A DNA stretch of 64,000 nt from Fistulifera solaris (lineage: Eukaryota). Within the stretch, counting starts at the first letter, position 1, and each line of letters opens with the position of its first letter. The stretch lies in assembly GCA_030295235.1 (NCBI GenBank), contig AP026124.1, positions 186,001-250,000 on the forward strand, read 5' to 3'. Below, piece by piece: positions 26,548-35,172 of the stretch. Both the position numbers and the translations under genes were made by a program. The notes under the pieces are model-generated. The model was not told the DNA's origin. It saw only the letters and a list, made by a program, of their open reading frames with translations, and ran no database searches.

Positions 26548-28266
26548 TTAGCCTTCCAAGTCGATTACATGTGGCCAGAATCCTCCCCAACGACTTTTTC
26601 GAGCTGCGGCATAGAGACCAGGTGCAGCAATCGATGCTGACTTACTCACTTTGTACCTAGCGATCCTACCTGGTGCAGTACAGCCTTCAACAAATACGTG
26701 TCCCTTCTTTTTCCTGGGTGCTCGTACGATACGAGAAAAAGAAGAACGCTCTTCCCGTACTATTTCCAAACCCAAAGCACTTTCATCACTGTGCGATAGA
26801 TATGCTTCTTCAAACGTTTGCACTCTTTGATCGAGGTCTTGAAACGCTATCATTGCATCCTGAACATCGTCTTCCACACGTATGCGAGAATTCACCAAAC
26901 TTTCTTTGAGAAGCTGTGTGAGCGTATTGTCGACTTCCTGGCTGCTGTCGGAATCGATCAATTTCGATCGCTTCTGTACCACCAAATAAGAAAATTTCTC
27001 ACTTTTACTCTTTCCTCGCTGCGCCGGTAGCGAATGGACGAAACTACAGTAACCTCGGGACATTTCGGGTTGCTCCACTTCGTCTTCATCGATCTCTATA
27101 TTTTCATTGTCTTCGTCGTCCGTTTCATCCTTATCTTGTACTACGTCTTGTTGTGTTTTCTTCCAATTGTTAGGTCTGGAGTGCGGTGGCAACCGTTCCA
27201 ATGGACATGGTCCATGATGTGTACAGGGAGCGAGTATGCAAAAATCGTCTTGTGTATCCTCTTGTGAAGCGGCTAGTAAGAAATTCCGCACCATCCGGAT
27301 GGTGGCAAAGCCATCGGGCGTACCAGGCTCAATGACAACTAGCACTCCCTGATCGTTTAACTTTTCCCACAAGAGTGTAATGACCGACAGTGCTGCGGAT
27401 CCATATGGCAATTCGGTCAATCCATAGGCACAGAGCGCTAAATCGAACGAAGCCATTTCGGACGAAGTGGCGTCTTCTTTGTTGGACGAGGACAAATACG
27501 ATGAAAATGTCACTCGCGGAGGTAGATTGTGTCGTTCCAAAATGTCTTGAAGTATTTCTTGAGCACAGTGCCGCATAGTTTGTGACGGATCAATCCCATG
27601 AATCCATTCAATGTGTGTTGATGCTTTATAGTCATCTACCGAATGGTTCGAGAAGAACACTTCCAGTGCCGCAGCGGACGCACTGCCACAGCCAATCCCA
27701 AAGTCCAGAATTTTCCGTGGCTGCCATGAGGAGTCAATAATACCTTTGGGTTTCATGAGCAACGCTTGTGTTTCTTGTAAGACGCGACTGACGACCGCGT
27801 AGTTGGGTTGGAAGCGAAAATATAAGGATGCCCACGTTTCTTCTCTTCCGTATAAAACCAACGGCGTATCGGACTTTTTTGCTGGATCATTCCGCAACAG
27901 TCTCCTTCGTTCGGCTTCTCGTTGTTTAACGAGATTTTTGTGTACATTGACGATACGATCTTGGTAGACTTGTTGTAAATGTTTGCGTTTGTGCAGTTGA
28001 GGAACGGATGGTAAGGCTCCCGCATCCGTCACTCTCCAAGGTGCTCGTGCGGGAAGTTCGAGTAATGTTTTCCAGGGTTGTCGCTCATCCGTTTCGTCGT
28101 CCTCTTCCTCCAAATCATTCGGATCGACCGCCGCCGGACGAGAAAGGGACGGTTGTGTGGCGGATGTAGTTATTTGTCGCGTGCTGATCCGCGTCAGTTG
28201 GGTTTGGAGGGAAGAAGAAGATGGTTTACGCTTCGTAAGCAAACAACAAGTTTTTGATCGTATCAT
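26548..28266 (-). CDS. RSM22: Mitoribosome small-subunit assembly factor RSM22/METTL17-like
   Basis: LDFGIGCG SAM-binding motif, IEPGTPDGF, APCTHHGPCP, EKFSYLV, ARKSRWG; mitochondrial-type presequence from ATG 28266. Confidence 0.88.
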   Translation of the reverse strand: MIRSKTCCLLTKRKPSSSSLQTQLTRISTRQITTSATQPSLSRPAAVDPNDLEEEDDETDERQPWKTLLELPARAPWRVTDAGALPSVPQLHKRKHLQQVYQDRIVNVHKNLVKQREAERRRLLRNDPAKKSDTPLVLYGREETWASLYFRFQPNYAVVSRVLQETQALLMKPKGIIDSSWQPRKILDFGIGCGSASAAALEVFFSNHSVDDYKASTHIEWIHGIDPSQTMRHCAQEILQDILERHNLPPRVTFSSYLSSSNKEDATSSEMASFDLALCAYGLTELPYGSAALSVITLLWEKLNDQGVLVVIEPGTPDGFATIRMVRNFLLAASQEDTQDDFCILAPCTHHGPCPLERLPPHSRPNNWKKTQQDVVQDKDETDDEDNENIEIDEDEVEQPEMSRGYCSFVHSLPAQRGKSKSEKFSYLVVQKRSKLIDSDSSQEVDNTLTQLLKESLVNSRIRVEDDVQDAMIAFQDLDQRVQTFEEAYLSHSDESALGLEIVREERSSFSRIVRAPRKKKGHVFVEGCTAPGRIARYKVSKSASIAAPGLYAAARKSRWGGFWPHVIDLEG

Positions 28267-28925
28267 TGTTATTCGTTCCCTTGTACAAATACAAATTATT
28301 GCTAGATAATCTTTCACTTGATGATGGCAATGCAAAAGGAGTGCGATGGATGCGATCACAGGATTTTTTTTCCTTGAGGTCCTTGATGGGCCATGTGCCT
28401 GAAATGCGTCTTGCCTTCATCCGTCGTCGGGACGGAAAATGCCGTCGTACCTGGTACGGTATACAAAGCAGTATCCAAAAAATCTGTGACTATCGATCCA
28501 AGTGTAAGCGACCGTTCTCCACGACCGCATTTCAGTCATGAATCATAATTTTTCCGACCAAAACTACGTCAACATATTACCTGGTACTGGTTCGGTACCA
28601 TAGCTCATACCTCATACCCTTTGTATGCTAAAATACCGTTGTACCTTGTACTTATTTCGATGCTAGGGCTGATTTACCAGGTACACCCTAGAAAGAAAAG
28701 AAATCGTCTTTTTTCGAAAATGGGCTGCGCCACGTTTCTACTAATGTCCGTCCTTCGCACGACGCAAGATACCAGGGTACTGAAACTGCATGGATGGCGA
28801 ATGGCGACCATCTCGCGATCGCGATCACCAAACGGCAACCACTCCATGCTGGTGGACCTTTTTGGATTTTTATTGCTCGGGAGCGAAGCGAGCGATGGGC
28901 AGACGCCGAAAGGCGTCTTTCTCAA

Positions 28926-29566
28926 TAAATTTTCGCGTTTCGTCGTTCGCACAAACACCACACCCCCATATTTTCTGGGTACGTCACAACACCGCACTCC
29001 CATATTTTCTGGGTAGGTGAACCACTCGCCCATATTTTCTGGGTACGTGAAAACACCACTCCCCCATATTTTCTGGGTACGTGAAAACACCACACACCAC
29101 ACTCCCATATTTTCTGGGTACGTCACAACACCGCACTCCCATATTTTCTGGATACGTGAAAACACCACACCCCCCCTATTTTCTGGGTACGTGAAAACAC
29201 CACACACCACACTCCCATATTTTCTGGGTTCGTGAAAACACCACACTCCCATATTTTCTGGGTAGGTGAACCACTCGCCCATATTTTCTGGGTACGTGAA
29301 AACACCACTCCCCCATATTTTCTGGGTACGTGAAAACACCACACACCACACTCCCATATTTTCTGGGTACGTCACAACACCGCACTCCCATATTTTCTGG
29401 GTACGTGAAAACACCACTCCCCCATATTTTCTGGGTAAGTGAAAACACCACACTCCCATATTTTCTGGGTACGTCACAACACCACACTCCCATATTTTCT
29501 GCCATATTTTCATGGTACGGTACAAGTACAGTTTTCGCGTAAATTTTCGCGTTTCGTCGTTCGCAC
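28926..29566 (+). repeat. 27-bp perfect direct repeats bracketing the array
   Basis: TAAATTTTCGCGTTTCGTCGTTCGCAC at 28926-28952 and 29540-29566. Confidence 0.95.
28965..29517 (+). repeat. Minisatellite array inside the transposon: 16 cores CCCATATTTTCTGGGTA plus a degenerate end, unit lengths 30/34/35/41 bp
   Basis: Cores start at 28965, 28999, 29029, 29063, 29104, 29138, 29173, 29214, 29248, 29278, 29312, 29353, 29387, 29421, 29455 and 29489. Confidence 0.97.
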
Positions 29567-30744
29567 CAAACCTTCGTTCCTCAATAAATTTCTTTCGTCG
29601 CCATCGACATCAAACTAGCGTTTTCAATCGAATTTCGCGTAGCTTTTGCTCTTTTTAGCTCAATACACTTTCGTATGAATATGCGATTTATAAATGAGCA
29701 GTTTCTTGGCGATCCTTGAGGGTAAGAGTGCCGATTTGTCGGCTTTTAATTCCCTGTCGACAGAGATAACATTGCCGACAAAAGATCTCCGAAAGCCGAG
29801 AAACATTCTGACGCCATTCTGTGGCAATGCTCAAAAGCATCTTGCTTCGCTTCAGACGTTCTCACAAGAAAAGGCTTCTTTATCGTCCCATTCTTGCTAA
29901 TCGATTTTCGCTTCAAAATTTTCTTTCTCCTTGCGTCGGATCATCATCTTCGCACGAGCGACAGAACCGCTTAGATTCAAATAAACTTAAGTCAATAGTA
30001 ACGATTAATGAATATATTTTTCCTCTTACCAATAAAACATCTATTTTTCCTCTGATATATCATTGTCGGGACCAAACTGAGTATTTACTTTGTACGCGAA
30101 ACTCGCTTTATGGCTTTCGGAATCGAGGCCAAATGCACGCTTCCTGACGGTTATTGTTGATTCACAGCTCTTCATTCAAAATTTAGAGATATTGCGGATT
30201 TTTGAGGCAAGTTACAAGCCGAGAAAAAGTAAGAGCAACCCGGCCCAATCCGAAAAGATATCGCCACTGCCTTTCCACAGAGCTTTTCTTGAGCGCTGCG
30301 TACGAAGTCATCACATAAACTACTATTCATCCTCATTTCAATCCACAGGATGTAAAAATCGCTGGTTTATGCAACAATAGCTTGATCCAAAAATGACCAT
30401 GGATCGCCATTTTTTAAACCCGCCCGCCCGGATCGCGTACAGGCGCTTTAAAAGTCGCTTTTGGATAACGCATTCTGATTGGTTGGACCTGATTGTGATT
30501 GGCTGCATCCAAAAAGTTTTTTGGATGGCATGTCGCTAAGGTATGTCTTCCTCCTAAGTAAATCCAACGGCGGACGGTCCAAAAAGGTCCACCAGAATGG
30601 AGTGGTTGCCCACCAAACACCGCAAAGTTAACAGGGGAAGTGTTGTTCGTTCCTGTTTTGCAAACAATAGAAACTAGAAACAATAGTTACTTGTACAAGG
30701 TAATGCCAAACAATTCAAATCAATAGGAAACCCTTTGACGGAAA

Positions 30745-33700
30745 ATGAAGAAAAGAAAGAGAGAAAGTGGAGACCTTCCGGAACGAACGAAGCCGTCCGT
30801 TTCGGTGACAAACGAAAAGTCGGATGATTTTCTTCTTCATGTCCTCCATGTATCCGAGTTCGTCACAGCCAAAACAATTCCCAACACTACGCAATTGGTG
30901 TCGTTAGATTGCATATTGGAAGCTCTCAAAGAAAAGAAAGCAATGCCCGGTTGTCCAATATCCAAAAATGACGTCTGTTTGCTTCTCCTACCGTGGGCTG
31001 TCCGTAACGTGCTTTCCGGGACGAACCTCACACGCTCGATCTGGTACACATTGCTCGTATCGATGGATATCCTTGTCAATTTTGATCACAATCATGCCAA
31101 GTATTCGCTTTCCAATCAAGTTTTGACACAAAGCACTCTTTTCAAACTGTGCCCCAGAGTAGCGTTGTTCATTGCGTCGAATAAAGAAGAAGAAGATGAT
31201 GACGCATCCTTTCACGTCGAACTAGAACACTCAGCCAAGTCCTGTGCCACCAAGGCGTACGTTATTCTTACCGAAAAGCTATTTCATCCAACAATGGATG
31301 TTGCTTGCAAGTCTCTGCTTTTACCAATTCTAGAGAAAGAGACTCAGGTTTCTTCCCATTACGATATGGTTTTGATGGCTACAATGAATCTGATTCATCG
31401 TTTAGTTGTTCACGGCAAAGGAAATCCAAAGACAACATTCCAGTTAATCGCCAGTGCTCCCATCCTAACTGCCTTGTCTAAAGTTTACTGCTATTCTCGA
31501 TCCAGAAGCACTGTCGATGAACATGTTTCTGGACAGGTTCTGACGCTTGTAAAGAAAATCTTTTCCTTCGGCTTGTTCCATCCTGCTCACCATCTTCAAG
31601 GATTTTATTCTCTCCTTCACAAAACGAAGACTGCTCCGTTTTCAAGAGATGCTAGGGTGCCGCGTCAGAAAGACAATGATGATTCGTCGTTCCGTTGTTA
31701 TCAAGAGGAGCTTCTCAAAACGGTAGAACAATCGTTGTCAAAGAATGATACGGAATTTACGGAGATTGTTTCGATCATTCATGGCGTCTCGTTACTGTTC
31801 CAGGTGTTTTTGGAACAAAAATTGGAAGAACGTGGGGATACTTTGTCCAAGAAAAAATCGCAAACGCTGGACCCCGCCAATATGCAATTTCAAATGTTTG
31901 CTAGATGGGTGGTGCGACTTCAGCATCTCGTAGAGAATGGCGTTGAAGCGATACGTTTCGCCGCGCTACAAGCGATATTGTCCATGCTGGAATCGCTTCT
32001 TGCACACAACGCTTATTCCGCGTCACAGCACGATGAGAATGGGTATTTTTTCAATTTTTTAGCTGGAATCTATCATCAAGTTTCTGCAACAACCACTGTC
32101 AAAACACGCAAAACAGGAAGCCTTGAGTCTATCATTCCCATTTTTGTTGTTCTTTTGCGCTTAAATCACCGTCTCGTGCATGATTCGTTGGAACGACTCG
32201 TCAGTTGTACTCTTGAAGTTGGTGTTCACGGAAATGAAGAGCGAGCTGCGGATTTACTCGTTGAAGCGTTTTCGTCTTACGAAAAGCTTCGACAACAAAG
32301 TTACCTTGTTGAAGCAATTTTGAAAGCACTCGCTCTGCTGCGATTGAAAGAGAATGACGCGGAAACGTATTTGTTCCTAAACCTTTTAAGGACTGAGAGA
32401 GTTCGCGCAACGGCATCGCACGCACTTCAGAGCTGTCCGATATTAATTGTGAAAGAAATATTCAGTATATTCGAGGAGTGGTTTGTTTTCGCAGTATCGA
32501 AGAAAGACAATGAACCCCAAACTGCCAGAGTGTGTCTCTATGTTGCCGCTGACGTGTTTGAAGTTCTTTGTCAAAGTATAATTGTGGACAAAACAACGGC
32601 TTCACATATTGCTGAGATGTGTGAGCATTTCATGGAGCATGCTGTGTCTAGTTTTGCTATTGGAATGATTGGTACTACAGGGTCTGTTAACAGCGCTCTT
32701 GCTGACATATCATCGAGCTTATGTGGTGGAATAATAGATCTGCACATTCGTTGTGCGTTCTGGCTGGGTCGGACGAATCATATTGTTATCCCTTCATTGC
32801 TGTGCGAGCACTTATCCAATTTTAGATACCTAGAGCCAAGCAAGTTGTCCCATTTTGCTGGAATGTTTTGTGGAGTCGCTCTTTTAGCTTGCAACCGACT
32901 GACGCAGATTGACACCGAAATACACGAAGAAGAGCGCAAGACAATAGAATCAGAAGATAAAATGAGCGATTCAGATTCCCTCGTAGCGGAAGGCAAAGCG
33001 CTGGCCTCTTCCATTTTCAACCTGGGCAGTCACGTGAAGTACGACGAGCCGGGACAGTACCGCCACCCCTATCATTTCATTGCACGACACCGCTTTCAAT
33101 GGCTGAAGTATGCTGACGACGACCATATTTCCTTGTTCCTACGTTGGGTTTGTAAGGACGCACTTGTATTCACACTTGACGACTCGCAAAAGTCAGCACC
33201 GAAAACCTCCACGTTTGGTAAAGTTGATTTGTTCTTTGATAGCAGCTTTGTAAGTCACGGCGTGATTTACAAGCGACTGTTCTCCGAAGCCCTTGCTGCT
33301 GCTTTTGACCTCATAAAACTTGGCCTTTCTACTAGCGATAATGCAGACAGAGATGGGGTGTCTGATCTATTGTCCGTCCTTGATCAACCGGACAATGGTC
33401 AATCGCTGGCCGTTAGTCTTGGTCACTTGCAACAGAAAGGCATGGCTGTATTGATTGAAGTATCGGACAGTCGTTTGCCTTATCTATTTCGAAGGGCTTC
33501 CTACCTTCTTCGTGAAGTGGCCGCACCGACTATTGATTCGTGCGATACTTTCACGGACGGAAAGAAATTACTGCACATGCTGTGTAAGCTTGACCTCGCC
33601 TTTCGATCCCTGAAGTTTCCAAGCACGTTGATTATATCTGAATGGACAGCCACTCAATTTATTTTGAGAAAAGTGCTATCACATTTGTTAAACCCCTTTC

Positions 33701-35172
33701 TTTCCGAATCACTGCAAACGTGTCTTGAAACGCGCCAACAAGCTCTGGAGACTATTGAAAGAATGTTTGACTCTTTTGCGACAAATGAATATCTTAGTCT
33801 TACCAGTGAGGAAACCACTGCTTCCTGTGGACTTGAGCTTCACGTCATCTGTATTGTCGGTTCTCTTTTGGCATCGGACGCAGCGTCAGATCTAGCGACA
33901 TCTCTCAGAAATATGACTGCTCTAGCAACAGAGCGAAGAGACGTCTTAGCTCTGGTTGCTTTTAGCCGCTTCCCTTGCAGAGGGCATACGAAAGTACAAA
34001 ATTTTTAACGAATGCCCCTCCCGAGATGTAGCGACATATCTGGAAGCGCTTTGGGTGGTCGCCAAGTTGCGTTTACGAAAGGACTTGTTAGAAAGTAGCT
34101 CCTCATGCTGGCGGCTTAGGAGTGAGTGCATGCTCCTTGGTTGCGACCTTCTGAGAATCGAGTTTGATGAGAAGCAATACTTGGAGTTGTTTAATGAAAT
34201 CACGGACGATGAATCGATTTTACAAGATGAAGATGCGGCAATTGACGAATACGAATATCAATCGCGCGTTTATGTTTTTGGGTTCTTGGCGCTTACTTGC
34301 ACAGAGAGATCGCGTTGTAAGCGATTACTAAATGCAATCATCAAACAGAAAAAGAACATTCTTTACTGGATGCCGCTTTCATGAATGTGCTCATTCATAT
34401 TGCTGCAGACGACATCGACGAGTTGCTCGAAAGATTGATACAGCGCGAAGCCCCACCAGTCACTTTACGGTATCTCTTGCTATGCTTGCAATGCGCGACG
34501 GCTGAGCAAACGACTGCTGTTGCCAAAAACGCACATACGATTTTCATCCTTACCATGAACTTGCTCAATTCTAGTTTTCGTTCACAGGAGAGTCGCAACA
34601 TGGGCCTTGATACATCATTGGAAATCGTTGACTTCTTGCTAAACCACAGGGAAATGATCATCTTCCGCGAATTTGATATTGCGGTTATTTTATCGCTCCT
34701 TTGTGCAATTCTTGGTGATTGCGAACAGCACACCGGATCTGAAGTCTCTGTCTCCACCTTTTCCTGGTGCACAACAATCCTTACCTCGATGTTCCAACGC
34801 TATTCAAAGTATCTATACGCATGCGTCCCCATCGTAATCTCGCTATACTTTTGTGTGTTGAAATATGCCATGTTCGGACCTGTCGATCGAAAAGTATCGC
34901 AGCAGTTTGCTGGAGTTTGTGATCTAATGGTTGCCCACAAGGAAGTCTACAAGAAACACGTGCTAGGTATAGTTCTCGAATTCGTATCGCAGGTCGGATT
35001 TCTCTCCCTGGAACATCGAAATCGAATGCTTCCTGCCATTTATTCACTACTCGATACAATGTCAACGTATGAAATGCAACAATTGAATGCTAGCATGGGA
35101 ACAGAGCAGAAAGTTCTTTTCAGAACGATTTACCAGTCGTACCAGAAAGGACACACACACAAGGGACAGTAA
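30745..35172 (+). CDS. URB2: URB2/Npa2-like nucleolar pre-ribosomal protein
   Basis: Long helical ORF set joined across indels at ~33960 and ~34355; C-terminus KKHVLGIVLEFV...LPAIYSLLD...FRTIYQSYQKGHTHKGQ resembles the Urb2 domain; N-terminal KKRKR NLS. Confidence 0.7.

Follow-up and report, generated by a model that had tools for sequence, protein, structure and literature searches.

A probable non-autonomous cut-and-paste DNA transposon with Merlin-compatible ends in the shared upstream region of two divergent diatom genes

Several kinds of cut-and-paste DNA transposon invite comparison with the 1,777-bp element described here, which lies between two divergently transcribed genes in a 64-kb stretch of diatom DNA (hereafter, the window: the whole stretch that was analyzed). 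Merlin elements, as described in a 2021 survey, have terminal inverted repeats (TIRs) of 24 to 462 bp, a terminal 5'-GG, target site duplications (TSDs) of 8 or 9 bp, and a DDE_Tnp_IS1595 transposase (PMC8101967). Among diatoms, a Mutator-like element (MULE) of the pennate species Phaeodactylum tricornutum, which was shown to move and inserts in or near genes, is 3.7 kb long and autonomous, with TIRs of approximately 200 bp and AT-rich TSDs of 9 bp (bioRxiv 10.1101/2023.01.02.522487). The element in the window agrees with Merlin in starting with 5'-GG, in its TSD of 8 bp, and in having TIRs within the described length range, but no DDE_Tnp_IS1595 coding sequence was found in it or among the window open reading frames (ORFs) scanned. 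Like the P. tricornutum MULE, it appears to be a cut-and-paste element close to diatom genes, but its 1.8 kb are non-coding, its TIRs measure 33 nt, and its 8-bp TSD has a GC content of 50%. Non-autonomous hAT elements resemble it in their 8-bp TSDs, clustered subterminal repeats, and internal deletion derivatives of 1 to 2 kb, and differ in that their termini read YARNG rather than GGCAA and that their TIRs are typically shorter than 33 nt. Miniature inverted-repeat transposable elements are likewise non-coding, bounded by TIRs and TSDs, and inserted close to genes, but they are typically below about 800 bp in length, which the 1,777 bp found here exceeds, and no high copy number is seen for the element.

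The element is delimited by two inverted arms of 33 nt, which a repeat finder reported as 97% complementary with a spacing of 1,711 nt (coordinates in Table 1). Aligning the left end to the reverse-complemented right end gave 32 identities in 33 positions, and directly past position 33 the similarity dropped to background, which marks a sharp inner boundary of the TIRs. The terminus reads GGCAACC. Identical copies of the 8-mer CACCAAAC touch both TIRs on their outer sides. The base outside the left copy is T and that outside the right copy is A, and the TIR cannot be extended by the next base; because neither the duplication nor the TIR extends by one base, the TSD is exactly 8 bp. A preliminary description of this locus had reported 33-bp TIRs with one mismatch and a perfect 8-bp TSD abutting both ends, and the alignment bears out both. 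Without its TSDs, the element has a GC content of 0.444, compared to 0.461 for the window.

We compared this arrangement with what chance would produce. A 25-nt TIR word, allowing up to three mismatches, matches the window only at the two arms, and two such matches occurred in none of 100 dinucleotide shuffles. Seven pairs of inverted repeats of at least 18 nt lie within 8 kb of each other in the window, and a flanking direct repeat accompanies only the pair described here; the other pair with an arm of at least 20 nt has four mismatches and no TSD. An inverted repeat of at least 18 nt combined with a TSD of at least 6 bp was found in none of 20 mononucleotide shuffles, and the probability that 8 of 8 bases match by chance at one fixed position is approximately 1.5e-5. 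The element is the only structure in the 64 kb that combines TIRs with a TSD.

The element has no detectable capacity to encode a transposase. Twenty-one ORFs of at least 50 aa overlap it, the longest of which (283 aa, minus strand) is a read-through of an internal 34-bp repeat array; the longest one elsewhere in the element has 108 aa. The right two-thirds of the element (29540-30618) contain 25 stop-to-stop ORFs of 40 aa or more, and we scanned 18 of them with Pfam; the seven excluded were four that derive from the array and three with lengths of 43, 43, and 54 aa. None of the 18 contained a transposase domain, including DDE_Tnp_IS1595 (PF12762), and the sole match was below threshold (3HBD, E 0.027, 15 bits against a cutoff of 27). 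The earlier observation that no ORF of transposase length lies inside the element is thus upheld. A search of the element for tRNAs and for Rfam families at E values up to 1 gave no match. Because an intact TIR element with an 8-bp TSD has no transposase of its own, we classify it as non-autonomous.

The ends of the element also share a short motif. TCCAAAA occurs 25 times in the 64 kb, counting both strands, and six of these occurrences fall within the element's terminal 2 x 250 bp, where 0.15 would be expected (Poisson P 1.4e-8); motifs of the form ATCCAAAA are clustered in the element ends (P about 1e-8). Each TIR carries one TCCAAAA, and the right subterminal region has four more, at 30386 (plus strand), 30459 (minus), 30508 (plus), and 30519 (minus), together with a degenerate copy of the inner half of the TIR found by the repeat finder at 30385-30399. 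This pattern is as expected for subterminal repeats that bind a transposase, a role that the motifs may have here.

Taken together, these data indicate that the element is very likely a single, structurally intact, non-autonomous class II (TIR, cut-and-paste) DNA transposon. In the mechanism that we propose, the host genome would encode a DDE-type transposase at another locus; this enzyme would recognize the 33-bp TIRs, and probably also the (A)TCCAAAA subterminal repeats, excise the element in trans, and re-insert it via cuts staggered by 8 bp, the repair of which would produce the CACCAAAC duplication. The present copy would have inserted upstream of two nuclear genes that are transcribed divergently, in a raphid diatom near Fistulifera solaris, into their common spacer of about 0.7 kb, which would have read ...GATCACCAAAC joined to ACCGCAAAG... 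with a single CACCAAAC. As for its age, the eight base pairs of the TSD show no differences and the TIRs one mismatch, in a single copy. An undecayed TSD and one TIR mismatch make a recent insertion plausible, as the preliminary description had proposed, although one copy excludes heavy decay only, and the TIR arms need not have been identical at insertion.

Several results weigh against a mobile element of this kind. We know of one copy in the sources searched (the window, metagenome records, and viral contigs). The 64-kb window has no further copy of the TIR, and comparing the whole element with it gave nothing beyond 13-nt chance matches; of the 44 window ORFs of 170 aa or more, 41 were scanned with Pfam, and none is a transposase. 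Among 241 million metagenome records, a 21-nt TIR word found two loci, both chance matches of 21 to 27 nt in GC-rich contigs. In viral contigs, the first TIR word gave six 19-nt chance matches at a gene start, in contigs of 30 to 33% GC, and the second TIR word gave none. Neither an empty-site allele nor an autonomous partner was seen in these sources. The metagenome, viral, and prokaryote collections do not contain the host genome; their negatives are therefore weak and say little either way.

Merlin is the best structural fit for the superfamily; further candidates are MULE, hAT, P, and others that make 8-bp TSDs, as well as a family not yet described. If the element were a non-autonomous Merlin, related to bacterial IS1595 and IS1016, it would be mobilized by a DDE_Tnp_IS1595 transposase. 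Its 5'-GG terminus, 8-bp TSD, and 33-nt TIR, three of three structural features, all lie within the Merlin description, in a family whose defining feature is the transposase itself (PMC8101967). The known distribution of Merlin argues the other way. The 2021 survey searched all higher eukaryotic ranks up to November 2019, by blastp and then by tblastn for genomes without matches, and the portion of its text available to us places the stramenopile matches in Phytophthora and Aphanomyces only (PMC8101967); a text search of its nine supplementary files returned no diatom genus names. Similarly, the repeat annotation of the diatom Cyclotella cryptica, in the part of that source that was accessible, lists 12 DNA-transposon superfamilies, Merlin not among them, and in the papers that we searched, none mentions Merlin together with transposable elements, RepeatModeler, and Bacillariophyta. 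The Repbase rule for assigning non-autonomous elements calls for TSD length and positions 1 to 11 to match a classified member with no more than one mismatch (PMC4455052). The element's terminal 10-mer has no exact occurrence in the Merlin sequences of the survey's supplements (first 400 characters of each), and the 8-mer matches shown in those sequences are internal or not checkable as termini. The GGCAA terminus also agrees with GGNRM, the terminal consensus of Merlin. We consider a Merlin identity doubtful; of the preliminary description, the intact, non-autonomous TIR element stands as to its structure, and the Merlin-like ends stand only as compatible with Merlin in starting with GG, in TSD length, and in the length of the TIRs. 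We rate somewhat higher, though still below even odds, the chance that the element is a non-autonomous member of a different known superfamily that can produce TSDs of 8 bp (MULE/MuDR, hAT, P, or the rarer Zisupton/KDZ or Novosib). Both hAT and MuDR are annotated in diatom genomes, in the available part of the C. cryptica account, and the active MULE of Phaeodactylum is documented, although its TIRs of about 200 bp and TSDs of 9 bp compare poorly with the 33 bp and 8 bp found here (bioRxiv 10.1101/2023.01.02.522487). An 8-bp TSD with 33-nt TIRs also departs from the general MULE/MuDR pattern of long TIRs and TSDs that are typically 9 bp (8 to 11 bp). Short-TIR MULEs with 8-bp TSDs exist elsewhere, so a MULE is still a candidate, and MULE termini often start with G-rich triplets. 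Clusters of short subterminal repeats such as ATCCAAAA are classic for hAT, P, and CACTA elements, but hAT termini read YARNG and P termini CANRG rather than GG. For hAT in particular, the TSD length fits and the terminus GGCAA does not, and the TSD, with A at position 2 and A at position 7, is half a match to the hAT target consensus nTnnnnAn.

A cut-and-paste superfamily that is not yet described would explain why we found no relatives of any part of the element except its minisatellite in the window or in the metagenome, viral, or protein collections, and diatom DNA transposons are poorly catalogued. This is an argument from absence in databases without the host genome, and the TIR and TSD features fit existing classes; we regard a new superfamily as very unlikely, although the element may belong to an undescribed diatom family, as the preliminary description had suggested. 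Whatever remains of our confidence in a cut-and-paste origin goes to a TIR transposon without further assignment. Finally, the structure might not be a transposon at all, but a local rearrangement or a chance arrangement on top of a minisatellite-rich spacer. It is present in a single copy, CACCAAAC also occurs once inside it (at 29564) and two more times in the window, and the units of the internal array are rich in related ACACCAC words. However, a 32/33 inverted repeat with the same 8-mer abutting both outer ends never appeared in the shuffled sequences, and the similarity breaks off abruptly at the inner boundary of the TIRs, which is what functional ends should show; we therefore consider a non-transposon origin extremely improbable and retain the non-autonomous TIR transposon as the best explanation.

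Table 1. Features of the element and its target site duplications (positions in the window)
Feature	Position	Strand	Remarks
Left TSD copy, CACCAAAC	28826-28833		Identical to 30611-30618; adjoins TIR
Left TIR, 33 nt, starting 5'-GGCAACCACTCC	28834-28866	+	Inner part has one (T)CCAAAAA motif on the minus strand
Left subterminal non-coding stretch	28867-28953	+	7-bp stem, AATAAA, first copy of the 30-bp direct repeat
Internal minisatellite, 34-bp unit x 15.7	28954-29501	+	Tandem Repeats Finder; open in several minus-strand frames
Second copy of the 30-bp direct repeat (29/30)	29540-29569	+	97%; holds the internal TSD 8-mer at 29564
Unique internal sequence	29570-30384		No coding or RNA content detected; no similarity elsewhere in the window
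Right subterminal region	30385-30577		Four (A)TCCAAAA motifs, degenerate inner-TIR copy, two ATTGG boxes
Right TIR, 33 nt	30578-30610	-	GGTCCA twice, 10 bp apart
Right TSD copy, CACCAAAC	30611-30618		Identical to 28826-28833; adjoins TIR

Approximately 31% of the element consists of the internal minisatellite, whose 34-bp unit has a plus-strand core of approximately CCCATATTTTCTGG and for which Tandem Repeats Finder also reported a higher-order period of 249 bp (2.2 copies). The two copies of the 30-bp direct repeat bracket this array, the first of them (28926-28955) slightly overlapping its start. Because the array edges grade into degenerate units rich in TTTTCGCG, the two 30-bp copies may themselves be old units of the array that have diverged. 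Just outside the 30-bp bracketing repeats and the array, another short repeat, TTYCTCAATAAATTT, is present at 28918 and 29577.

We searched protein collections for relatives of the minisatellite, using as the query a 311-aa ORF of the array that extends across the left TIR and into the flanking DNA. Word-indexed searches gave one match and four matches, and an exhaustive search of the cluster representatives of a library of 1.84 billion proteins gave 62, which already included those four. One of the 62 (P0149) is a bacterial repeat protein, which we discarded as spurious, leaving 61 (P0121-P0182 except P0149). These relatives are short ORFs of 46 to 201 aa, with a 34-residue period and 37 to 67% amino acid identity; the 34-residue period is the 34-bp DNA unit read in three frames (PENxG, RKxG, and QKxW, from one DNA core). 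When mapped to the window, their significant matches fell inside the array only (best match outside, E 0.014). We found no credible extension of the relatives into the left subterminal region or the TIR, and past the array edge there is no real identity. Outside the array, 26 of these proteins provide 27 segments of at least 25 aa, which are mutually unrelated, with the exception of one pair, P0123 and P0139. All ten relatives that we looked up are singleton clusters on contigs of 8 to 103 kb from NCBI and/or JGI/IMG, either unnamed or named "hypothetical protein." Two adjacent array cores gave one locus in viral contigs and two loci in prokaryote genome contigs, all of them unrelated short coding or simple repeats, and a literature search on Zisupton or minisatellites in diatoms found nothing relevant. 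Judged by these similarities, the 34-bp minisatellite is one member of a repeat family that is widely dispersed (61 ORF clusters), but no further example of the TIR element came to light.

The window is gene-dense eukaryotic nuclear DNA, with genes for a fucoxanthin/chlorophyll-type antenna protein, a triose-phosphate translocator, SNF2, HMG-box, and Med31 proteins, and others. To the left of the element, an Rsm22 methyltransferase gene (E 5e-30) occupies 26548-28416 on the minus strand; its ATG is placed at 28266 by a 572-aa collection entry of the window's own protein, which is an exact substring of the ORF. The best named relative of this protein is FisN_1Hh098 of Fistulifera solaris (87% identity), followed by many diatom proteins. 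To the right, a 1,089-codon ORF (30739-34008, plus strand, first ATG at 30745) has no Pfam match at E values up to 0.01 and looks like an uncharacterized diatom gene. The distance from the left end of the element to the Rsm22 ATG is 568 bp, and that from its right end to the first ATG of the 1,089-codon ORF is 135 bp, so that the insertion site is the shared divergent upstream region of these two genes. Subtracting the element and one TSD copy from the ATG-to-ATG distance leaves approximately 693 bp, a normal divergent spacer.

F. solaris is an allopolyploid with paired homoeologous chromosomes of approximately 45% GC, according to the part of its genome description available to us (PMC5935921), and the GC content of the window (0.46) is near this value. 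Based on these sequence comparisons, the window may represent the other homoeologue of the FisN_1Hh098 gene, or it may come from a close relative. If it is the other homoeologue, the allopolyploid genome would offer a built-in empty-site comparison, and an insertion 135 bp upstream of a start codon would be a candidate cause of homoeologue expression bias.

What is new here is one further non-autonomous cut-and-paste transposon, an ordinary single insertion, in a group of organisms whose DNA transposons are thinly catalogued. An intact element of this type points to a transposase that is active now or was so recently, in a lineage used for lipid biotechnology. It is also conceivable, although we think it unlikely, that the element is the tip of a Merlin/IS1595-type or unclassified cut-and-paste family that is still mobile in this oleaginous allopolyploid lineage, the first such family in diatoms, and one vehicle by which the 34-bp minisatellite, with its 61 unrelated ORF clusters, has been spread into promoters. 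If a Merlin partner were confirmed, the range of that superfamily would grow to include diatoms; without such a partner, or an unclassifiable one, in the host genome, the interest of the element is modest.

A few small features of the element deserve mention. Besides the two TSD copies, CACCAAAC occurs in the right-hand 30-bp repeat copy, at 29564-29571, and elsewhere in the window at 2616 and 26893; these extra occurrences are probably a coincidence. In the left subterminal stretch, a 7-bp stem with a GAAA loop (AGACGCC/GGCGTCT) at 28901-28918 is followed by AATAAA at 28924-28929. We gave this hairpin no weight as a meaningful fold, since the surrounding 94 nt fold no better than shuffled sequences (z -1.28). 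At the other end, the distance of 135 bp to the ATG makes the right end of the element the present proximal promoter of the 1,089-codon ORF. Two ATTGG (reverse CCAAT) boxes lie there at 30478 and 30498, 20 bp apart, in GATTGGTTGG and GATTGGCTG contexts, approximately 250 bp upstream of the first ATG. The element may now supply promoter elements to the 1,089-codon ORF, and it might affect the neighboring genes.

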